This document shows, one piece after another, positions 7,458 to 29,580 of a stretch of 32,000 bases of DNA (the stretch's first letter is position 1; the number at the start of each line of letters is the position of its first letter). Source of the stretch: Aciduliprofundum boonei T469 (GTDB lineage Archaea > Thermoplasmatota > Thermoplasmata > Thermoplasmatales > Aciduliprofundaceae). The stretch is from NCBI RefSeq assembly GCF_000025665.1, contig NC_013926.1:360001-392000 (forward strand), in the 5' to 3' direction. A model generated the notes under the pieces. The model made no database searches. It was not told where the DNA came from and saw nothing but the letters and a program-made list of their open reading frames with translations. The position numbers were made by a program, and so were the translations under genes.

Positions 7458-7578
7458 CAGCCCCGGGAGGATTCGAACCCCCGTCGCGGGATCTCCTCGA
7501 AGCCCTTTGGGGGTAAAGCACCTTTTCCAAAGGGGCTTCGCCAAAGTCCCGCATGCTTGACCGCTACACCACGGGGCT
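7458..7578 (-). tRNA. tRNA-Gln(UUG) with a 48-nt intron (7493..7540) at the canonical 37/38 position
   Basis: Hand-folded cloverleaf: acceptor AGCCCCG/CGGGGCT, T-arm GGGGG-TTCGAAT-CCTCC, anticodon stem CGGGA/TCCCG, loop CU-UUG-G|intron|A. Mature length 73 nt. CCA is not encoded. Confidence 0.85.
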
Positions 7579-10212: not shown

Positions 10213-10311
10213 AATTAAAAATACCCGAAATATATTTCAAACGCACATAGAGCTATCTGCACCAACAGAATGAGAGATATAGCCTTGCTCAATACATCCT
10301 TGAATAAATAG

Positions 10312-10437
10312 TGCCCGAGCCGGGATTCGAACCCGGGTCAAGGGCTACCTGCAAAGCCCCCTTCTTTACGGGTAAAGCACCTTTTTAAAGGGGCTTTTCC
10401 GCAGGCCCCCAGGATATCCATGCTACCCCACTCGGGC
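10312..10437 (-). tRNA. tRNA-Arg(GCG) with a 52-nt intron (10347..10398) at 37/38
   Basis: Acceptor GCCCGAG/CTCGGGC, T-arm CCGGG-TTCGAAT-CCCGG, anticodon stem GGGGC/GCCCT (one G-U pair), loop CU-GCG-G|intron|A. CCA is not encoded. Confidence 0.8.
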
Positions 10438-20192: not shown

Positions 20193-20313
20193 GGGGCCGT
20201 GGGGTAGCTTGGTTATCCTACCGGCTTTGGGAGAGGAACCACCAGCGGGTTCCTTTACCTCCTGCAACCCTCCAGAAAAGCCGGTGACTCCGGTTCAAAT
20301 CCGGGCGGCCCCA
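20193..20313 (+). tRNA. tRNA-Pro(UGG) with a 47-nt intron (20232..20278) at 37/38; its 3' end is the casposon target
   Basis: Acceptor GGGGCCG/CGGCCCC, T-arm TCCGG-TTCAAAT-CCGGG, anticodon stem CCGGC/GCCGG, loop UU-UGG-G|intron|A. CCA is not encoded. Confidence 0.85.
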
Positions 20314-20323
20314 CTACGAGGAG
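20309..20323. repeat. Target-site duplication, left copy (CCCCACTACGAGGAG)
   Basis: Identical 15-mer at 29400..29414. The left copy includes the last 5 nt of tRNA-Pro. Confidence 0.85.
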
Positions 20324-20359
20324 GGGGATATATATACATCCCCTCTTAAGTTCCCTTTT
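20324..20359. repeat. Left terminal inverted repeat
   Basis: GGGGATATATATACATCCCCTCTTAAGTTCCCTTTT matches the reverse complement of 29364..29399 at 35 of 36 positions. Confidence 0.9.
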
Positions 20360-23058
20360 CACATCACTCCTGATTTGTAGATCTGATATAGGATTGGATA
20401 CAACTTCCTTTTTCTCTTGGGATACTTTCCACGCTTTAGGTTTGTTTTAAGCTTCTTTATTGCCCTTAATGAGACTTTGACATCAGGATATTTTGCATTA
20501 ATATACTCTAATATTTTCTTAGGTGAAAGACTCGATATAAAATCTTTGAAATCTTCCATTTTCTCATATTCTATGTATTCAGGTATACCCATTATCATAT
20601 TTTTCTCTAGCTCGTTAGACTCCTTCCCTATGTATTTTATGTGGTCAACTGTTATTTGTCTCCTATTCAACAATCCAACATCCCCTTCATACTTTCCGTC
20701 ATGGTGGTTAAAGTAGTCTTCAAGAACTTTAGAAATGGGTTTCCAGTATTCTTTTGTATCTAAGGGTAGATCTTGAGAGCTCAGACCTGACTTGTAGTCA
20801 ATAAACGGTCGGTATGGTATAAGCTCAAACTTTTTATCTTGAGGGCTTATGAAGGGCATAATTGGTATTACTGGCTCACCATTCTCGGAGCGGTAGGCAG
20901 TCCCAACAGTAACAAAATTGAAAGGTTTTATCTTCTTTGCTAGTTCTTTATTATTGTTCAGATAGTCAAACCTTTTAAGAACCTGTGGGGTTGTGACTGT
21001 TAGTTGAGATACAGCATACTTGTGGTGGTATTTTTCAATTATCTCTTCTCTACTATCAGGGTGATAGTGCATTTTTAGAATATCTTCCCAAACCTCTTTT
21101 GGGTCTATGCCTATTATATGACCTAAGCCGTGAGAAGACTCTTTTAATATCTCTATTTTTTCACCATTAATACGATACAGGCAATACCTCTTAGCAGAGA
21201 TGCCATAAAATAGCACATTATCTAATGGTATGCCCTCTTCGTTGTCCTCGATTTTAAACATGTCAACACTATAAGAATAGGGGTTTAATTTTTCAAAGAG
21301 CTCCTTGACCTCTCTAACTTTTTCAGGTTTTACAAATATGCTGTCTGTATCCATGTAGGCATAGTACCCATTATTTGAAGCAATACTTTCAGCAATAGCC
21401 AAGATAAGCCTTGCACCAGAGGTTAGGAATATGGCTATTATTGGGTTATATGCCTTTCCAATGCTCTCTATTTTGCCTACCTTAGTGTTAAACTCTTCAA
21501 GACCATAGACGGTGATCTCCTTATCTTTTACTTTTTCACTATTTACCTCTATAAATATTCCATAAGAAGAAGCATTTGCTATTATCTTAAACTCATTCTG
21601 GATAACTTTTAACTTCTCAATATCTCCAATGCCTCTCTTTATTTGGTCTTTGTACTCAAGCCTCTTCTCTATGATCTTCTTTATGAAATTCTCTTCAGGG
21701 GCTATTGTAATACCGTTGATCTCTATAGCTCTTAAACTCTGTCTACCTACTGGCTCAAATGTCAAAGAATCTATTATTTCAGGGGCTTTTCCAGTTAAAA
21801 TTTTAGATGAAATTACATCTTCTATAGTGTACCATATAGGTCTTTGAGAAGTCAGGTAGTTAATTCCTATATTGTAGACATCTCCACGGTACTTCATCCT
21901 TATGGGTAATATGTCCCTATCAGGTCTTATTAATACAATACTCCTCATTAAAGGGTCTCTCCATACCTCTTTATCCTGTAGGCTTTCAACACTTATCTTT
22001 GATAGGAATGATTTGACCTCACCTTTGGTAGCTCTTACTCTTATAGACCTAGCCTTAAGAATCTCATCTAGCTTGAGTAGTATGAAAAGGGTGGGGTACA
22101 TAGAGGTAAAGTCAAGGTATGTAACGGGAATAGGGCTCTTCCTTATCTTACACTCAGTCCTACCACCATAATAAGTAGTCATAGCAAAGCCCAGTACCTC
22201 TTTAGGAAAATCAGGGTTAAGCTCCATAAATGGACTTATACCCATCTTATTGAGGTAGTACTTACCTATTGATGCTGGGGAATATAGTAGGTTTTCTTCC
22301 ATGTCTATATTGAACATCTCTTTTCTCTCCATAAGTTTAAGGTAAAGTTCAAAGGTCACTTGCACATCGTTTAAGTTGTACTCTATGTAGTCTTTATTTA
22401 TTGCTCCATGCCTCTCAGGGTGTGTCTTATAGTGCTCACACTTGAACTCTTTGGAGGCTGACTCTAAAGTATGTCTCTTGTTTGTTAGGGCAAATGCAAA
22501 AGTCCTCAGATCTACAAAATACCCTTCGTAGTGCGTGTATTTTCTCTTGCTCTTCTTTCTGAGTGGTCTTAAAAACTTTATAAAAGACTTTGTGGAGTCC
22601 AATGCTCTTATCATGACCCTTGGGTTTCTAGGATCCTTTGAGAGTGTAAAAGAAAAAGCCCTCGGGTCTTTCCTAGATATTGTGTAGTCAATAGCCAGTC
22701 TAGACAAGTCAAAAGGTAAGTTGAACCCTATACACTTTGCCCTTGCTTGGTAAACATAGGGGTAAAAGACCTTTTCAACAAACCTAGTCTTTGGTATGAC
22801 CTTAATACTGTGGCTATCTCCAAACTCTATTATTTTCTCCTTTTCAGACTCTTTTAGGTTATCTTCATAGAAAATATACCTCTCAATAACCTTATTGTTC
22901 CTTGCAATTAAACTTGATCCGAATAGTAGGTTTTGGTACTCATCAGTAGTTGTCTCGGTATCGAAAACAAGCAATAGTGAGGGGTTAGGTGATATTTTCT
23001 CTTTATACCCACTCCTATTATCACTATGAGAAAAACACCTTAGAGCAATATCACTCAT
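20359..23058 (-). CDS. polB: Family-B DNA polymerase (casposon PolB)
   Basis: Exo I FDTET, Exo II FNLPFD, Exo III YNLND. Pol A YLDFTSMYP, Pol B KIIANASSYG, Pol C YMDTDS, plus KRY. ATG 23058 is preceded by GGAGGT; the ORF track TTG is at 23073. Confidence 0.9.
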   Translation of the reverse strand: MSDIALRCFSHSDNRSGYKEKISPNPSLLLVFDTETTTDEYQNLLFGSSLIARNNKVIERYIFYEDNLKESEKEKIIEFGDSHSIKVIPKTRFVEKVFYPYVYQARAKCIGFNLPFDLSRLAIDYTISRKDPRAFSFTLSKDPRNPRVMIRALDSTKSFIKFLRPLRKKSKRKYTHYEGYFVDLRTFAFALTNKRHTLESASKEFKCEHYKTHPERHGAINKDYIEYNLNDVQVTFELYLKLMERKEMFNIDMEENLLYSPASIGKYYLNKMGISPFMELNPDFPKEVLGFAMTTYYGGRTECKIRKSPIPVTYLDFTSMYPTLFILLKLDEILKARSIRVRATKGEVKSFLSKISVESLQDKEVWRDPLMRSIVLIRPDRDILPIRMKYRGDVYNIGINYLTSQRPIWYTIEDVISSKILTGKAPEIIDSLTFEPVGRQSLRAIEINGITIAPEENFIKKIIEKRLEYKDQIKRGIGDIEKLKVIQNEFKIIANASSYGIFIEVNSEKVKDKEITVYGLEEFNTKVGKIESIGKAYNPIIAIFLTSGARLILAIAESIASNNGYYAYMDTDSIFVKPEKVREVKELFEKLNPYSYSVDMFKIEDNEEGIPLDNVLFYGISAKRYCLYRINGEKIEILKESSHGLGHIIGIDPKEVWEDILKMHYHPDSREEIIEKYHHKYAVSQLTVTTPQVLKRFDYLNNNKELAKKIKPFNFVTVGTAYRSENGEPVIPIMPFISPQDKKFELIPYRPFIDYKSGLSSQDLPLDTKEYWKPISKVLEDYFNHHDGKYEGDVGLLNRRQITVDHIKYIGKESNELEKNMIMGIPEYIEYEKMEDFKDFISSLSPKKILEYINAKYPDVKVSLRAIKKLKTNLKRGKYPKRKRKLYPILYQIYKSGVM

Positions 23059-23485
23059 ACTTATTACCTCCAAGGGGGAAACACCTTAGTGCAATTTCCC
23101 TAGCAATCCTCTCATAAAAGAAGTTTTGGGTCTTGTAAGCCTTTAACTCTAAAATATCTATGAGTCCCCTCAAAAAGAACTTGTGTCTCTTTTCTGTAGG
23201 TAATCCTCTCTTTAACCATTCTTCGCCCCATAGGTTCTGTTTAGCACTTAAATGTTGGTGACATTCTTTACAGACTAAAACGACCCTGCTGTCATGCTTC
23301 CTACCTGCAATATGGTGTCTTTCAAGACCTTTTGTAGCTCCGCATATCTCACAGTACTTTGGTAGCTCTCTCTCATACTCAAATAAAGAGAGAACCCAGT
23401 TCGAAGCTTTAGAATACTCTTTTTCAATAGTATCTCTAACATCCATAAGGATCTCATCAATGCATAGTGGAGACTGAGAATACAT
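23051..23485 (-). CDS. HNH endonuclease
   Basis: CEICGATKGLERHHIAGRKHDSRVVLVCKECHQHL is CxxC...HH...CxxCH, a zinc-stabilised HNH core. Its 3' end overlaps the polB start by 8 nt. Confidence 0.8.
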   Translation of the reverse strand: MYSQSPLCIDEILMDVRDTIEKEYSKASNWVLSLFEYERELPKYCEICGATKGLERHHIAGRKHDSRVVLVCKECHQHLSAKQNLWGEEWLKRGLPTEKRHKFFLRGLIDILELKAYKTQNFFYERIAREIALRCFPLGGNKYE

Positions 23486-23491
23486 AGGGAC

Positions 23492-24001
23492 TCACCAATT
23501 GTATATCTCATAGAACTCGGGTTCTTCTATAGACCTTGCAATATCTACCAGTTTTTCAGGGTCAGTCTCTAGCTTGTGTATGTTACCCTGAGCATCTTTT
23601 ATTTTTATGTTTCTAAACCTCTCAACAGCTGTAATATCACCAGTCTCTAGAAATATTCTTACTGCATTGTGGTACTTACCTATTATAGAAGCATACCTTG
23701 AGTCATTCACCTCTATGCTAATTTTCTTACCATTTTCATTTATGTCCATTACTCTAGAGATTTTGTCATACCTCTTTGCTATCCACCTACCGTTAACCTT
23801 CTTAAAAGCATTAGTGCTCTTAATCACGGTGTTTGGAGATATACCTACCTTCTTACATGCACTTGACAAAGACTCCCCTTTCCTTACTCTAGCAAGTACT
23901 TCCAAGCTCTTTTCCCTTAGCATTTTCTCTCGAGGGCTCAATAAGCTCCAAGGCTTCTTGAAGACCCTCTCTTTTCCAGACATACTACTTTTCTCTCTCA
24001 T
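23492..24001 (-). CDS. HTH DNA-binding protein (casposon-encoded)
   Basis: HTH-like LSSACKKVGISPNTVIKS. The start is ambiguous: ATG 24001 has TTTATAGTATAGG directly upstream (possibly leaderless), and alternatives are 23983 and 24064. The ORF-track start 24118 would overlap the divergent gene. Confidence 0.55.
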   Translation of the reverse strand: MREKSSMSGKERVFKKPWSLLSPREKMLREKSLEVLARVRKGESLSSACKKVGISPNTVIKSTNAFKKVNGRWIAKRYDKISRVMDINENGKKISIEVNDSRYASIIGKYHNAVRIFLETGDITAVERFRNIKIKDAQGNIHKLETDPEKLVDIARSIEEPEFYEIYNW

Positions 24002-24129
24002 ACCTATACTATAAACATTGGGGATATATAATATAGTGAATTCACTACACTTTACTTTATCCATAATGTTAAATATCTTTGAAAAACTTGAAAATACACG
24101 GAAAATATTATATTGCATTGTTCACTATC
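24002..24129. promoter_or_regulatory. Divergent promoter/operator region inside the casposon
   Basis: AT-rich spacer between divergent HTH genes. Contains GGGGATATATAATATA (24020..24035, the same first 11 nt as the TIR tip) and the perfect palindrome GTGAATTCAC (24036..24045). Confidence 0.4.
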
Positions 24130-25170
24130 ATGAGTATGGAAAAGTTCCAATCAGCTACTAGGATAATAGCACATAGAAGGAAACAAAAGACAAGAGAAAA
24201 AGTTCTTGGAATTATAAAATCACATGGAAAAATAAGGTTCAAAGAGCTTATGCAAGAAAGTGGGTTGTCTAATAGGTGGCTCTCTATAACTCTCCATGAA
24301 CTCCTTGAGGAGGGTCTGATTAAGCAAGTAATTGGGGATATAGAGGTTAAGGGTAAAAATGGGGAGCCTGTGTTAAAGAAGAGGGCTAAGTTATACACAA
24401 TCACTAAAAAAGGTGATAATGTTTACAGTAATGCATGGTATATATTACACAAACTAGAAGATTTGAGAGAAAGAGGTTCTACATATTATCATAACGATTT
24501 TGAACTATTTGGAGTTGATATAATAATGAATGGGGTAGAAGGTGATGCATTTAATACATTACCTACAATTCCAGAATATGAATTTTTCATAATGCGTAGC
24601 ATATTTAGAAAAGTGGGTGCATACGATATTAAAAACCTCTCAGGTGAAGTGATTATTGCACTAAACTTTGATATGCATAAATTAATTGGAGGTATTTTAG
24701 AAATTAAAGACTTCATTAAGATGTTAATTAAAAATGCCGATGTTTTTGAGAGTGATCTTTTTAGGGATATGGGTTGGAGAGATAAAATTCACAAGTTTAT
24801 ACATCTCCTTAATTATTCCAAATTACTAGTTGATAATAAGGATATAATTGAAAGAATAACGAAAAATGGGAATAAGTTATTTTTGTCCTACAAGCCATTA
24901 ATAATTTCGAGTTATTATCGTACTGGAAAAGGTCTTGATGAAGAAATACTAGAAAAGGTCAAAGAGCATATTGAAAATGATACAAATCCCTTAGAGGATG
25001 AAAATATTAAGCATAAATTGATTAGAAAATCTGGTAATATTACCGAATTTCCCATTTATGATTATTTAAATTTACTTAAGGTATTTAATCTCACTAATTA
25101 CCCATTTCTACAAAAAATAGAGTTAGTGAATGAAAAAATAACTAGAACAATAGAGAATGGAGGTATCTAA
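24130..25170 (+). CDS. Winged-HTH protein with a large C-terminal domain of unknown function (casposon-encoded)
   Basis: N-terminal wHTH-like KVLGIIKSHGKIRFKELMQESGLSNRWLSITLHELLEEGLIKQV. ATG 24130 is preferred over TTG 24079. Its stop is immediately followed by the cas1 ATG. Confidence 0.6.
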   Translation: MSMEKFQSATRIIAHRRKQKTREKVLGIIKSHGKIRFKELMQESGLSNRWLSITLHELLEEGLIKQVIGDIEVKGKNGEPVLKKRAKLYTITKKGDNVYSNAWYILHKLEDLRERGSTYYHNDFELFGVDIIMNGVEGDAFNTLPTIPEYEFFIMRSIFRKVGAYDIKNLSGEVIIALNFDMHKLIGGILEIKDFIKMLIKNADVFESDLFRDMGWRDKIHKFIHLLNYSKLLVDNKDIIERITKNGNKLFLSYKPLIISSYYRTGKGLDEEILEKVKEHIENDTNPLEDENIKHKLIRKSGNITEFPIYDYLNLLKVFNLTNYPFLQKIELVNEKITRTIENGGI

Positions 25171-26385
25171 ATGAACCCTCTTTTAGTTAGTGGTTATGGA
25201 ATTTCCATAAATGTGGATAAAAGGAAACTAGTAATAAGGGAAAAAGGTAAACAAGTTCACGAATTTTACCCCCACCAGATAAACTACGATTCCCTAATAA
25301 TTGAAGGTTATTACGGGAATATTTCCTTTGAAGCTATAAGATGGTTAATGAAGCACAATATAACGGTATCCGTTTTAAACTGGAACGGAAACCTACTTTC
25401 CGTATTTTTGCCTAAGGAACCCATTAACGGAAAACTGAAAATAAGGCAGTATGAAATATACATTAACGAAAAAGAGAGACTGAAAATTGCGGAAAAAATA
25501 TTAGAGGAAAAAATAAGGAAATCGGAAAATATGCTATATGAATTAAGTGAGTATTATCCAGAAATTGAGCACATTAAAGTAAAAAAGAGGATAGAAAAAG
25601 AGGAAAAACTAAAAAGGGACATGGAATTAAAAGAGGAAAATAAACCGAAATTATCCTATTTATTGATGTATGAGGGAAGGGTTGCGCAAATATACTGGAA
25701 AGAGTTATCAAAGATTTTCAATAAACTGTACCCTGAATTTAACTTCACTTCAAGGAGTACTAAGTCTTATTCTTGGAACATGAACGCTTCAGATGAAATA
25801 AATGCACTTTTAAACTATTCTTACGCACTACTTGAGTCTATGATAAGAAAGCATATCAATGCGGTAGGTCTAGACCCATCGATTGGTTTTTTGCATGAAC
25901 TAGCTTCCTCTAAGACCCCTCTTGTATATGATCTTCAAGAGCTTTTTAGGTGGGTATCTGACCTATCCGTTATCCAACTTCTAGAGGATAAGAAGTTAAA
26001 GAAATCATCTTTTATTGTAACTGAGAACTACCATATACGCCTTAAGCCCCAGACCTCAAAGCTCCTTGTTGAGAAGTTCAAGCTCAATATGAACAAGAAA
26101 TATGAAGTTGGTAAAAAGAGGTACACTCTGGAAACAATTATGTTCAATACAGTTCGATCCTTGGGTAAATATATCCTTGGGAAATCTAACACCTTGAAAT
26201 TTGAGATTCCATATATCCGTATAGAACATATAGAACCTGAATTAACAGAGAAAATACTTAAAATGACACCAGAAGAGAGGAAAGCACGGGGAATAAACAA
26301 GTCTACACTCTGGTACCAAAAGAAGAAACTGGCTCAAGGTAAGAGTATAAAAGTGTATGGGAAGGTAAAGAGTAAATTAAAATAG
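25171..26385 (+). CDS. cas1: Cas1 homolog (casposase) with a C-terminal HTH extension
   Basis: Cas1 signature blocks: LMYEGRVAQIYW (catalytic Glu), INALLNYSYALLES, GFLHE (His), LVYDLQELFRW (Asp/Glu). C-terminal TPEERKARGINKSTLWYQKKKL is HTH-like. GGAGGT lies 8 nt upstream. Confidence 0.9.
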   Translation: MNPLLVSGYGISINVDKRKLVIREKGKQVHEFYPHQINYDSLIIEGYYGNISFEAIRWLMKHNITVSVLNWNGNLLSVFLPKEPINGKLKIRQYEIYINEKERLKIAEKILEEKIRKSENMLYELSEYYPEIEHIKVKKRIEKEEKLKRDMELKEENKPKLSYLLMYEGRVAQIYWKELSKIFNKLYPEFNFTSRSTKSYSWNMNASDEINALLNYSYALLESMIRKHINAVGLDPSIGFLHELASSKTPLVYDLQELFRWVSDLSVIQLLEDKKLKKSSFIVTENYHIRLKPQTSKLLVEKFKLNMNKKYEVGKKRYTLETIMFNTVRSLGKYILGKSNTLKFEIPYIRIEHIEPELTEKILKMTPEERKARGINKSTLWYQKKKLAQGKSIKVYGKVKSKLK

Positions 26386-26407
26386 ATTTAAGTATTATAT
26401 CATTAAG

Positions 26408-29311
26408 ATGTCAGAAAAAAGAGGAAAGGTCACTGAAAGATCTTTATATCCAGCCATTATAGATCTATTAAAAAAAAGAGGTGCCGAAGGAGTCGAGGAG
26501 ATTAAATACGAATCTCAGCCAGATATAATCGCTGATTGGTTAGGAGCAAGATGGATTATTAGCATAAAAATAGGGAATTATACAAAAAGTATGTTCTTTA
26601 AAAATGCCATGATACAATATGCAAGGCATATAATTGATTCGGGTCTTAAATATGGAATGATTATATTTTTACCAGAGAGTATTAGAAATATTTCTGTAGA
26701 AGAGAAAGCTCTTTATAATGCTATCAGAAATAAAAAAGCTTATGTTATTTTAGATACTCCTGAAACTCAGAAAGAATTTTTAGATACCTTACCCAATATT
26801 TTTGAGGAAGTAGAAAGAATTTTAAAAGAGAAAATCAAATCCACATATAGTTTAAAAACGGTAATTACCCTTTTAAAAGAGCAAATCAATGATATTATGA
26901 AAGAGACTAGAATTACAGAGAAGGAAATGACCAATATAATTACAAGTGATGAATTGTTTCTTGGGATTAGTGCATCAAAACATAAGGATATAAAAGTAAT
27001 AAAGTTTATTTCGACATATATTTTTTTAACACAGGTTCTATTTGCTAGGTTATACGGTGTAGAACATCCAGCAATTTTAAGCGGTTTTGATATTAGAAAT
27101 ATAACTAAAGAAGGTATAAGAGAACTCTTTAGACGAATTACTGAGATAAATTATAGACCAATATATAAATTTGATATACTGGATACCATACCTGAACATT
27201 ATATAAAAGATACTTTCACTTTGATATGGAATTTAAAGATAGAAAATATTAGGTTTGAACTCCCAGGAAGATTATTTCATGAGCTTATGCCAAAAGAAAT
27301 TAAAAAAATGCTTGCTGCTTTTTATACTAGACCAATAGCTGCAGAAATTTTATCTTGTGTTACAATTAACAATGCTGAAGAAGTCGTATTTGATCCTGCT
27401 TGCGGTTCTGGTACGATACTGACTGCAGCATATAGAAGAAAACGAGAATTATGGAATAAACAAGAAGATCCTCACAAACTCTTTTGTGAAGAACAAATTT
27501 ATGGAACAGATATAATGCCATTTGCCGTAAATCTAACCACAGCTAATTTAGCATCTCTTAATCCTAAAATTACAATAGAAAAAATGAACATAGCAAGAGC
27601 TGATAGTCTTAAACTTGAACTAAACGTGCCTATTAAAAATGGTTTATCTAAATTAGAAAGATATGGTATACCTATCTCATCTAATATTAAAAGTAAGAAT
27701 ATGCAAGGTGATGAATATGATATGGTTCTAGACCTAATGGATGTTGTTCTAATGAATCCCCCATTTACAAAAATTGAAAGGGGAGTAAAGAAATATATAA
27801 AAATAGAGCGTTTCAAATCACGAGTTGGAGGAGAAATAGGATTATGGGGGCATTTTATAGCTTTGGCAGATATGATTCTTAAGCCAAATGGTATGTTTGG
27901 AGGGGTTATTCCTATTAATATATTGAGGGGAAGAGAAAGTGAAAAAGTAAGAAAAATAGTTTTTGAAGAGTGGTTACCTCTATATGTAATAAAATCAACA
28001 ATGAATTATGGTTTTTCTGAATCTTCTGAATATAGAGACATTCTAATAATAGCTAAAAAAACCAAATCAAAACCTATTAATCATAAAGTTAAGTTTGTTT
28101 TAATTAAAAAAGATCTAAATTCATTAAGCTTTAAAGATGTTAAGCGGATATGTGATAGGATTAAAACCTCATCAAAGTTAAATGACCCTCTACTAGAAAT
28201 AAGATCGTATTCTATGGAAGATATAAAAAAGCATTTTGTTAATATGATGTGGTTTATTAGTGGGTCATCTTTTGAATGGAAAGATAATCTTTTAAACATA
28301 ATAAGAAAATCCGAAATGGTGTTAGATTATTTCCCACATAGTGGTAATGGATATTTTATGGAAGGATATAGACCCGTACCAAAAGGTGTTTCTAAATTCA
28401 TGTTTATTACAAGACCTATTAATGAAAATAGGATCGATAAAGCCTTTTTAGTTCTCATCAAAGAAGATGATAAAAAAATATTCGCTGAAACAAAAATGAT
28501 GTATGAAATGAGTAAACTCAATGAACATTCAAAGAGTAGCATTTTCGATTTTGATAAAGATAAGTTTTTACTCACTATTAGAACACCCGTTGGATTGAAT
28601 ACAATGGATATTACAAATAAACATGATTATATTGCTATATCTCCTTATAAGGACATAGAAAAAATCCAGAGACTTTCAGGATTTAATAGTTCATTAAAAA
28701 ATAGTTATTGGAATAATATTAAAAAACAAATGAATAATATAAAAACTAAAATTATTGTAAGCCGTCGCATAAACCCTTATTCTCCAAATACACATTTGAT
28801 AGCTTTCTTCTCTGAAAATGATATTTTTCCTTCCAATCAAGTAAATGTGGTTGTAGAACCAGATCCAAGGAAGGCAAAAGCTGTGACCGTTTTATTAAAT
28901 TCAATATTTTTCTTGGCTTATTTCTTTAATCTTAAGGAAGAGACTACTGGGAGATATATAGATATTCGTTTTTATGATTTATACTCAATGAAACTGTATC
29001 CTACTACTAACACACAAATTGATAATTTAGTAAAAGTATTTAATAAATTTAAAGATGTAAATTTTCCTCCCTTAAGAGAGCAGCTTGATGAGCATTTTAC
29101 TGAAAGATATTCTGTATTCTGGAGCTCAGAAAGAAAAAAAATTAAGCCTTTGATACCTGTTGATTCTATAAAGCCGCATCCTGTACGACTAAAATTCGAT
29201 AAAGCCATAATAAAAGCTTTAAACTTATCAATTTCGCATGAAGAACTATTGCAAGCTTATAATGCAATAATAAACGATATGATTATTACCCGAGGATTAA
29301 AAAAAGATTGA
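26408..29311 (+). CDS. Large N6-adenine DNA methyltransferase, gamma-class, with N- and C-terminal extensions (type IIG/IIL-like single-chain R-M candidate)
   Basis: Motif I VFDPACGSGTILTAA is followed by motif IV LMNPPFTK. 967 aa. The N-terminal ~100 aa has a PD...(S)xK-like segment (QPDIIADWLGARWIISIK). The long C-terminal region could be a target-recognition domain. Confidence 0.75.
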   Translation: MSEKRGKVTERSLYPAIIDLLKKRGAEGVEEIKYESQPDIIADWLGARWIISIKIGNYTKSMFFKNAMIQYARHIIDSGLKYGMIIFLPESIRNISVEEKALYNAIRNKKAYVILDTPETQKEFLDTLPNIFEEVERILKEKIKSTYSLKTVITLLKEQINDIMKETRITEKEMTNIITSDELFLGISASKHKDIKVIKFISTYIFLTQVLFARLYGVEHPAILSGFDIRNITKEGIRELFRRITEINYRPIYKFDILDTIPEHYIKDTFTLIWNLKIENIRFELPGRLFHELMPKEIKKMLAAFYTRPIAAEILSCVTINNAEEVVFDPACGSGTILTAAYRRKRELWNKQEDPHKLFCEEQIYGTDIMPFAVNLTTANLASLNPKITIEKMNIARADSLKLELNVPIKNGLSKLERYGIPISSNIKSKNMQGDEYDMVLDLMDVVLMNPPFTKIERGVKKYIKIERFKSRVGGEIGLWGHFIALADMILKPNGMFGGVIPINILRGRESEKVRKIVFEEWLPLYVIKSTMNYGFSESSEYRDILIIAKKTKSKPINHKVKFVLIKKDLNSLSFKDVKRICDRIKTSSKLNDPLLEIRSYSMEDIKKHFVNMMWFISGSSFEWKDNLLNIIRKSEMVLDYFPHSGNGYFMEGYRPVPKGVSKFMFITRPINENRIDKAFLVLIKEDDKKIFAETKMMYEMSKLNEHSKSSIFDFDKDKFLLTIRTPVGLNTMDITNKHDYIAISPYKDIEKIQRLSGFNSSLKNSYWNNIKKQMNNIKTKIIVSRRINPYSPNTHLIAFFSENDIFPSNQVNVVVEPDPRKAKAVTVLLNSIFFLAYFFNLKEETTGRYIDIRFYDLYSMKLYPTTNTQIDNLVKVFNKFKDVNFPPLREQLDEHFTERYSVFWSSERKKIKPLIPVDSIKPHPVRLKFDKAIIKALNLSISHEELLQAYNAIINDMIITRGLKKD

Positions 29312-29329
29312 GTTCAATTAGTTCAAGTC

Positions 29330-29342
29330 TTTTTATTTTTTT
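29330..29342 (+). terminator. Oligo-T tract, candidate archaeal terminator after the methyltransferase gene
   Basis: TTTTTATTTTTTT lies 19 nt after the stop codon, just inside the right TIR. Confidence 0.35.
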
Positions 29343-29363
29343 GTGTTTAAATAGATATTTATA

Positions 29364-29399
29364 AAAAGGGAACTTAAGAGGGGATATATATATATCCCC
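29364..29399. repeat. Right terminal inverted repeat
   Basis: AAAAGGGAACTTAAGAGGGGATATATATATATCCCC. The terminal 20 nt (29380..29399) form a perfect palindrome. Confidence 0.9.
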
Positions 29400-29414
29400 C
29401 CCCACTACGAGGAG
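29400..29414. repeat. Target-site duplication, right copy (CCCCACTACGAGGAG)
   Basis: Identical to 20309..20323. Confidence 0.85.
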
Positions 29415-29487
29415 ACACCTACGATTAAGTCCCCCTTTGGGACTAACTCGCAGCTTTTGCTGCTCGTTTCCCCCTCTACCCTCTTCC

Positions 29488-29580
29488 CTAAGGGATAGGT
29501 GCTTTACCTCCCAAAGAAGAAAAGTGTTTTATCCCAAAAGAAAAAAGTTCCTTTAAAAAGCAGCTTTACCCCCAGAGAAA
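29488..29580 (+). repeat. Degenerate tandem units related to the tRNA-intron core (GGTGCTTTACC...AAAG-AAAA)
   Basis: Successive units: GGTGCTTTACCTCCCAAAGAAGAAAA / GTGTTTTATCCCAAAAGAAAAAA / GTTCCTTTAAAAA / GCAGCTTTACCCCCAGAGAAAA. Confidence 0.4.

Follow-up and report, generated by a model that had tools for sequence, protein, structure and literature searches.

The CRISPR adaptation module has been proposed to descend from casposons, whose type example is in fact AciBoo-C1, an element of the archaeon Aciduliprofundum boonei T469 that was named a family-2 casposon in 2014 (PMC4046053) and was the subject of further work by Hickman & Dyda (2015) and Beguin et al. (2016; PMC5137440). It is the best-studied member of the group, with only its Cas1 examined; the label "self-synthesizing" is still an inference. 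The 2014 and 2016 casposon papers (PMC4046053, PMC4779613) described the family-B DNA polymerases (PolBs) of families 2 and 3 as RNA-primed and related to PolB3, and proposed that they are primed by the host primase, while a 2019 paper called the family-2 enzyme "a distinct PolB". Kazlauskas et al. 2020 (PMC7544198) named the A. boonei casposon protein as a member of a separate cluster, "PolB_CDTDS", with ties to the main (RNA-primed) group as well as to the protein-primed one, and omitted this cluster from their trees. Here we analyzed a window of 32,000 nucleotides from A. boonei T469 (NC_013926.1, positions 360,001 to 392,000; all positions below are those of the window) that contains AciBoo-C1, with its polymerase gene, Aboo_0387, on the minus strand at 20359..23058. 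Profile alignments and a structure model showed that the predicted architecture of this enzyme is of the type found in protein-primed PolBs (pPolBs) and primer-independent PolBs (piPolBs), and not that of a cellular RNA-primed PolB (rPolB).

The listed open reading frame (ORF) spans 20359..23073 on the minus strand; with translation starting at the ATG at 23058, the product has 899 residues and the stop codon is TGA. The first-pass annotation, made from the DNA sequence and its ORFs, had credited this protein with a complete exonuclease set and complete polymerase motifs, and a check of the ORF found every motif that it quoted: FDTET at residues 32-36 (22951-22965), FNLPFD at 112-117, YNLND at 227-231, YLDFTSMYP at 314-322, KIIANASSYG at 491-500, YMDTDS at 568-573 (21340-21357) and KRY at 623-625. 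The catalytic residues D33/E35, D117, Y227/D231, D316, K491, D570/D572 and K623/Y625 are all present. Profile comparison, which might have exposed disrupted catalytic positions, revealed none, and at least 98% of 242 aligned family members retain the exonuclease and polymerase residues. The KxY motif is canonical, with K623 invariant and Y625 found in 237 of the 242. At motif C the family consensus is AYCDTDS, while Aboo_0387 has a methionine before DTD, as do 37 of the 242 members; YCDTDS also occurs in phi29, PRD1 and Bam35, and Pol II of Escherichia coli has YGDTDS. The consensus YCDTDS agrees with the PolB_CDTDS cluster of the 2020 paper and confirms the assignment, the methionine of Aboo_0387 being the difference. 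Judged by its motifs, Aboo_0387 is an intact proofreading family-B polymerase of a casposon-specific clade.

The protein has diverged beyond the reach of routine tools, and its assignment therefore rests on motifs, profile searches and the structure model. Aboo_0387 has no Pfam match at E<0.01, including to DNA_pol_B (PF00136) and DNA_pol_B_2 (PF03175), NCBIfam gave nothing usable, a phmmer search of PDB chains returned nothing at E<10, and PHROGs yielded a marginal match to the exonuclease domain only. Among 40 relatives, ten match PF00136 and three match PF03175, and the Pfam miss of Aboo_0387 is a matter of divergence and does not mean that the fold is lacking. The AlphaFold2 model has a mean predicted local distance difference test score (pLDDT) of 89.3 and a predicted TM-score (pTM) of 0.86.

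In this model, only 27 residues forming two short strands precede the ExoI strand, and the family median before ExoI is 36 residues. The exonuclease domain follows at about residues 28-250 (22309..22977, minus strand), with ExoI at D33/E35, ExoII at D117 and ExoIII at Y227/D231 according to both the model and the alignment. The ExoI residue lies at position 33 here, at 9-35 in pPolBs and at 112-156 in Pol II and T4 gp43; its location indicates that the N-terminal domain of rPolBs is absent. The spacing of the polymerase motifs is also distinctive. From motif A to motif B there are 175 residues (167-185 in 90% of members), compared with 120-137 in pPolBs and 74 in Pol II, and secondary structure assignment (DSSP) on the model places an insertion of about 115 residues (338-452; 21703..22047, minus strand) after the helices of motif A and before the fingers, at the position of phi29 TPR1. 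The insertion is predicted to form a mixed alpha/beta subdomain, collinear in hhalign with phi29 and His1, and the fingers are modelled as two short helices (458-475 and 480-498).

From motif B to motif C the distance is 79 residues (73-94 in pPolBs, 52 in Pol II and 63 in T4), and the model and hhalign together locate here a beta-hairpin of 37 residues (501-537; 21448..21558, minus strand) at the phi29 TPR2 position. Its strands cover 505-518 and 522-533, its length is 37-42 residues across the family, and hhalign lays it on phi29 TPR2 with gaps of only 1-2 residues, while the HMMER alignment to Pol alpha skips it. Structure prediction, which the first-pass annotation had named as the way to look for TPR1- and TPR2-like insertions, thus bore out a TPR2-like hairpin; for TPR1 it gave a candidate, a subdomain of some 115 residues at the corresponding position. 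The C-terminal region (residues 650-899, 250 in all; 20362..21111, minus strand) is modelled as the thumb plus an extra domain with a helical, basic tail; it is conserved in the family, about 230 conserved residues lying past a thumb of phi29 size. PMC9939771 describes this tail as a helix-turn-helix (HTH) fusion; a BLASTP comparison of the Cas1 and PolB C-termini (E 0.55) failed to reproduce the published similarity to the HTH of Cas1. A PIP-like clamp motif was found in one of 242 C-termini, by a regular-expression test only.

Aligning the family profile with individual polymerases by hhalign gave long matches to the pPolBs, namely His1 (94.8% probability, 295 columns), Bam35 (88%, 259 columns), phi29 (86%, 391 columns) and PRD1 (82%, 358 columns), all collinear from the exonuclease domain to motif C. 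E. coli Pol II, an rPolB, reached 72% over only 67 columns, and T4 gp43 reached 35% over 53 columns; the latter is a poor rPolB control (12-35% probability), and Pol II together with a profile search of PDB was used instead. Matches to rPolBs are limited to motifs B and C, covering about 40-75 residues, and a full-length relation to cellular PolBs was not encountered. Structural searches with Foldseek returned phi29 DNA polymerase as the top match in PDB (E 4.5e-14, TM-score 0.52-0.54 on the target) and the His1 pPolB as the top match in BFVD (E 5e-18), followed by a tectivirus pPolB.

The relatives of Aboo_0387 place the gene firmly within casposons. A profile built on 40 homologues and searched against 1.84 billion proteins collected 5081 representatives of 50%-identity clusters at E<=1e-3, and synteny was surveyed at 77 genome loci from archaea (Thermoplasmatota, Nitrososphaeria, DPANN, Methanosarcinales and Methanomicrobiales) and bacteria (Actinomycetota, Chloroflexota and other bacterial phyla). 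Of the 52 loci with at least 6 kb of upstream sequence, 50 contain Cas1, and in 44 of these it is divergent from the polymerase. At 53 of 62 loci a gene like Aboo_0389 lies upstream of the polymerase and shares its strand. The polymerase is the last gene on its side in every case. It closes a conserved HTH-HNH-PolB operon that reads outward toward the terminal inverted repeat (TIR). The opposite possibility, a cellular PolB carried as passive cargo, was rejected because Cas1 adjoins the polymerase relatives in 50 of 52 loci; the first-pass description of the polymerase as encoded by the element is upheld.

The same annotation had the gene reading outward and its stop codon abutting the left TIR, and this too is correct: the TGA occupies 20361..20359 on the minus strand, and its last base, 20359, is the innermost base of the 36-bp TIR. 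This abutment is not a rule of the family, because the gap between stop and TIR varies, from -1 nt in Methanolobus (locus L041) to 119 nt (L038), 226 nt (L007) and about 530 nt (L008). These four were the only related loci with convincing repeats, automatic TIR detection being mostly noise elsewhere.

Several genomes in the survey carry at least two polymerase loci, including Methanolobus sp. WCC5 (L035 and L041), M. bombayensis (L024 and L029) and an uncultured Methanolobus (L019 and L020); multi-copy genomes are found among loci L014-L029, L041 and L063 (Methanolobus, Methanococcoides and Methanosarcina). At L044, L048 and L063 the polymerase matches are fragmented. Multiple and fragmented loci fit repeated casposon integration followed by decay. 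Two short contigs, from metagenome-assembled genomes binned as Bacteroidota (L033) and Woesearchaeota (L002), carry close archaeal-type homologues (41-49% identity) although the contigs are binned to unrelated lineages, a placement that could reflect binning error or horizontal transfer.

The element at 20324-29399 is AciBoo-C1, the published family-2 casposon of 9.1 kb. A repeat search of the whole window gave as its longest inverted repeat 20320-20359 with 29364-29403 (40 nt, 95% complementary). Once the 15-bp direct repeat CCCCACTACGAGGAG is removed this leaves TIRs of 36 bp, matching at 35 of 36 positions, at 20324..20359 on the left, where the outer 20 nt are a near-palindrome, and at 29364..29399 on the right, where they are a perfect palindrome, GGGGATATATATATATCCCC. 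The direct repeats, read directly from the ends at 20309..20323 and 29400..29414, are identical at 15 of 15 positions and equal the published target site duplication (TSD). The target is an intron-containing tRNA-Pro gene (20193..20313, plus strand; 45.5 bits with the Rfam tRNA model), whose UGG anticodon was read off the sequence and which is named tRNA-Pro in PMC5137440; integration was at its 3' end, which overlaps the left TSD.

Beguin et al. (PMC5137440) reported for the A. boonei T469 casposon a 15-bp TSD CCCCACTACGAGGAG, a 36-bp TIR, a tRNA-Pro target and a length of 9.1 kb, with the flanking DNA stopping at nt 380,323 and resuming at nt 389,415 of CP001941.1, numbers that exceed window positions 20323 and 29415 by exactly 360,000. 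Look-ups by exact sequence identified the PolB as Aboo_0387, the HNH protein as Aboo_0388, the HTH protein as Aboo_0389 and Cas1 as Aboo_0391; the 90% cluster that contains Aboo_0387 has a 103-residue fragment as its representative. The identity of the element follows from this agreement in TSD, TIR length, target and coordinate offsets together with the exact Aboo_ matches. Its features are also those by which family-2 casposons are recognized: Cas1, PolB, TIR and TSD, an HNH and two HTH proteins, and integration at a tRNA 3' end. The earlier view of the element as a casposon is therefore correct, with Cas1 inside, TIR and TSD at its ends and a match to a published element. The element, polymerase, repeats and target site were all in print by 2014-2016, and Aboo_0387 is thus already known.

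From its modelled architecture and profile alignments, Aboo_0387 is most likely the element's own replicase, predicted to be processive and to displace strands without a host clamp or helicase. In the mechanism that we propose, the casposase would first excise the element; Aboo_0387 alone would then copy it, processively and with strand displacement, using no sliding clamp or helicase; and synthesis would begin at the 3' termini with their C-runs, started by the hydroxyl of a protein or by the end of the element itself rather than by a primer made by the host primase. It is the architecture of Aboo_0387 that makes the protein or the DNA end a more likely starting point than the host primase. 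Overall, protein priming or self-priming of Aboo_0387 is plausible and unproven, and we lean towards it. The first-pass annotation had cautioned that sequence by itself leaves priming by a protein, a hairpin or a host primer undecided, and that caution stands. In AciBoo-C1, and likewise at loci L008 and L038, a run of C (...ATATCCCC) terminates the 3' ends. Terminal base reiteration serves sliding-back protein priming in phi29 and PRD1. The C-run ends do not discriminate between modes of priming because the casposase requires the same bases (PMC5137440).

A number of observations weigh against the protein- or self-primed reading, and some of them also count in favour of the published model, in which an RNA-primed, PolB3-related polymerase replicates the excised element from host-primase primers. 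Host-primase priming was the prediction made for family 2, and for family 3, in PMC4046053 and PMC4779613, and biochemistry of any casposon polymerase did not turn up in the searched literature. In the Foldseek search of PDB, Pol zeta, Pol alpha and the poxvirus, RB69 and 9N polymerases follow phi29 within 1-2 orders of magnitude, and all global TM-scores are low (0.3-0.5). In profile-to-sequence comparisons, the solved structures that match best, at E 6e-7 to 3e-6, are those of Pol alpha (30.8 bits), Pyrobaculum PolB3 (5MDN; 30.3 bits) and Thermococcus PolB (28.8 bits), with 5MDN scoring no better than Pol alpha; His1 scored 28.4, Bam35 27.3, PRD1 21.5, phi29 20.5, E. coli Pol II 13.1 and T4 2.9 bits. 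RNA-primed enzymes thus score as high as pPolBs, or slightly higher, on motifs B and C, and by these motif scores the clade appears about equidistant from both PolB groups, as Kazlauskas et al. found. The canonical KxY motif likewise suits an RNA-primed enzyme. So does the outcome of the search for a terminal protein, which was not identified among the element's genes, in keeping with the first-pass result, terminal proteins being too divergent for this negative to count. Scans of the element with Pfam, NCBIfam and PHROG found no gene for a primase or a terminal protein, and neither of the genes upstream of the polymerase gave a terminal-protein signal: Aboo_0388 is an HNH nuclease and Aboo_0389 has no fold match, including to the phi29 terminal protein, at E<0.1.

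Against host-primase priming, the rPolB matches span motifs B and C alone, the enzyme lacks the N-terminal domain and carries extra subdomains at the TPR1 and TPR2 positions, its family has no conserved PIP box, and Kazlauskas et al. 2020 took the clade out of the main rPolB group; we consider the published model unlikely. Self-priming could also take the specific form of a rolling hairpin, in which the outer 20-nt TIR palindromes of the excised single strand fold back and the 3'-OH serves as primer. The palindrome is perfect on the right and near-perfect on the left, the 3'-terminal C is paired, and the DNA folds of the 3' ends have energies of -7.0 kcal/mol (right) and -5.2 kcal/mol (left) at 37 C with z-scores of -2.5 and -1.5; a TPR2-like hairpin in the enzyme would suit the strand displacement involved. 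The TIR stems, however, are AT-rich and weak even at 37 C, and A. boonei grows near 70 C, where AT-rich stems are weak. A terminal palindrome is moreover not evident in other family-2 TIRs (M. mazei, PMC10359463; loci L041 and L007), and recognition by the casposase also accounts for the palindromic shape (PMC5137440), which leaves rolling-hairpin priming improbable.

A de novo start of DNA chains, as by piPolBs, would be in keeping with an element in which neither a primase nor a terminal-protein gene was found, and piPolBs too combine TPR1 and TPR2 with the lack of a terminal protein on self-replicating integrated elements (PMC5695915). Their signature KH-X8-KTRG, which replaces KxY, is nevertheless absent from Aboo_0387, which has SAKRY and a full DTD in motif C, and a primer-independent start is in our estimation very unlikely. 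Least credible is that the polymerase has no part in replication and instead fills the 15-nt integration gaps that become the TSD, or serves host repair. Integration by Cas1 does leave staggered gaps that need filling (PMC5137440), and M. mazei has so far shown excision and reintegration, not replication (PMC10359463). Yet a proofreading enzyme of 899 residues with processivity-type insertions, its catalytic residues intact across thousands of elements, exceeds what gap filling needs, and tandem copies with an inactivated polB have been interpreted as dead elements (PMC4779613); a role in repair alone is extremely improbable.

The most extensive form of the protein- or self-primed reading is offered tentatively, as possible rather than probable: the polymerases of family-2 and family-3 casposons would constitute a fourth functional lineage among the family-B enzymes, thousands strong and spread over archaea and bacteria, that joins a TPR1/TPR2 build to motifs B and C resembling those of archaeo-eukaryotic replicases and starts synthesis at C-run TIR ends from a protein or a DNA end, not from host RNA primers. 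If true, all casposon families would share a replicase of the pPolB type, and for families 2 and 3 the model of replication now in print would have to be revised. The HTH protein exemplified by Aboo_0389, with its EEPEFYEIY tail, would then become the first candidate for a priming or origin-binding partner.

Aboo_0389 (23492..24064, minus strand) is a conserved HTH protein of 190 residues encoded by the first gene of the HTH-HNH-PolB operon (100% match in the look-up). With 50-60% identity, against 45-50% for the polymerase, it is the more strongly conserved of the two, and a similar gene accompanies the polymerase in bacterial casposons too. Invariant Ser, Tyr and His residues occur in the protein, which ends in an acidic, Tyr-rich C-terminal tail, EEPEFYEIY. 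Its AlphaFold2 model (pLDDT 83) found no match to a PDB fold at E<0.1, only generic HTH domains at E>0.1. Aboo_0389 may partner the polymerase in replication, a role for which it is no more than a candidate. Between the two genes lies that of the HNH endonuclease Aboo_0388 (23051..23485, minus strand), which has a CxxC...HH...CxxCH motif and a PHROG HNH match at E 7e-6. The HNH stop and the PolB start overlap by 8 nt at 23051-23058 (ATGAGTGA), an arrangement that suggests translational coupling within the operon.

The other half of the element is encoded on the plus strand. It begins with a winged-helix HTH protein (24079..25170; weak matches to Pfam HTH_45 and HTH_24, and a PHROG transcriptional regulator), the second HTH protein of family-2 casposons, and continues with the Cas1 casposase Aboo_0391 (25171..26385; Pfam Cas_Cas1 at E 5e-63, TIGR00287 at E 4e-54) and a cargo gene for an N6-adenine DNA methyltransferase of the Eco57I/MmeI type (26408..29311; Pfam N6_Mtase at E 4e-14, Eco57I at E 7e-10), the latter being mentioned for AciBoo-C1 in PMC4046053. 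The fraction of G+C is 0.28-0.34 in the half with the Cas1, winged-helix and methyltransferase genes (24000-29500), 0.35-0.39 in the polymerase half (20359-23500) and about 0.40 in the host flank, which suggests a mosaic origin of the two halves.

Three intron-bearing tRNA genes were seen in the window, at 7458-7578 (minus strand), at about 10309-10430 (minus strand) and at 20193-20313 (plus strand), the last being the integration target. Their introns are about 45 nt long and share the motif CCCTTTaAAAAGGTGCTTTACCCC, of which two more copies lie outside any tRNA just to the right of the casposon (29486-29514 and 29543-29579). Rfam detects two of the intron-bearing genes, the middle one falling below the gathering threshold, and at a permissive threshold neither the right flank nor the third tRNA-like locus yielded a credible match. 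ARAGORN reported no tRNA in the window and missed all three intron-bearing genes.

In summary, the observation itself adds nothing to the descriptions of 2014-2016, and the type of the family-2 polymerase is the point that has been sharpened. By profile and model it has the look of a protein-primed type of enzyme that displaces strands and works independently of a clamp, a build that argues against the label "RNA-primed, host primase" repeated in reviews for families 2 and 3. Looking forward, a thermostable phi29-like polymerase from an archaeon growing at 70 C could be of practical use.

Compared with known systems, the closest is AciBoo-C1 of the literature, which is the same DNA: the PolB-HNH-HTH / HTH-Cas1-methyltransferase order and the proteins Aboo_0387 to Aboo_0392 agree, with zero sequence difference. 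In that literature the Cas1 casposase is characterized in vitro, whereas the polymerase is unstudied. The RNA-primed PolBs of the original assignment (PolB3 5MDN, Thermococcus PolB1 and Pol alpha) give the best scores of the family hidden Markov model to single sequences, 28-31 bits on motifs B and C, but Aboo_0387 differs from them in having no N-terminal domain, two extra subdomains and no PIP box. The pPolBs of phi29, PRD1, Bam35 and His1, relatives of the pPolBs of family-1 casposons, likewise lack the N-terminal domain and have inserts at the TPR1 and TPR2 positions; they share the ExoII motif NLxFD with Aboo_0387, and their genes likewise lie beside a terminal inverted repeat and read outward. 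Aboo_0387 departs from them in an insert at the TPR1 position that is about 40 residues longer, in its roughly 230 extra conserved C-terminal residues, in an identity of just 13-15% and in the want of a recognizable terminal-protein gene: phi29, PRD1 and Bam35 have that gene just upstream of the polymerase, where AciBoo-C1 has the HNH nuclease and Aboo_0389. The piPolB of pipolins (Redrejo-Rodriguez et al. 2017) is, like Aboo_0387, a divergent PolB with insertions of the TPR1/TPR2 type on an element without a terminal-protein or primase gene. It has KTRG and an altered motif C, in contrast to the KxY and full DTD of Aboo_0387, and the pipolin integrates by a tyrosine recombinase, whereas AciBoo-C1 does so by Cas1.

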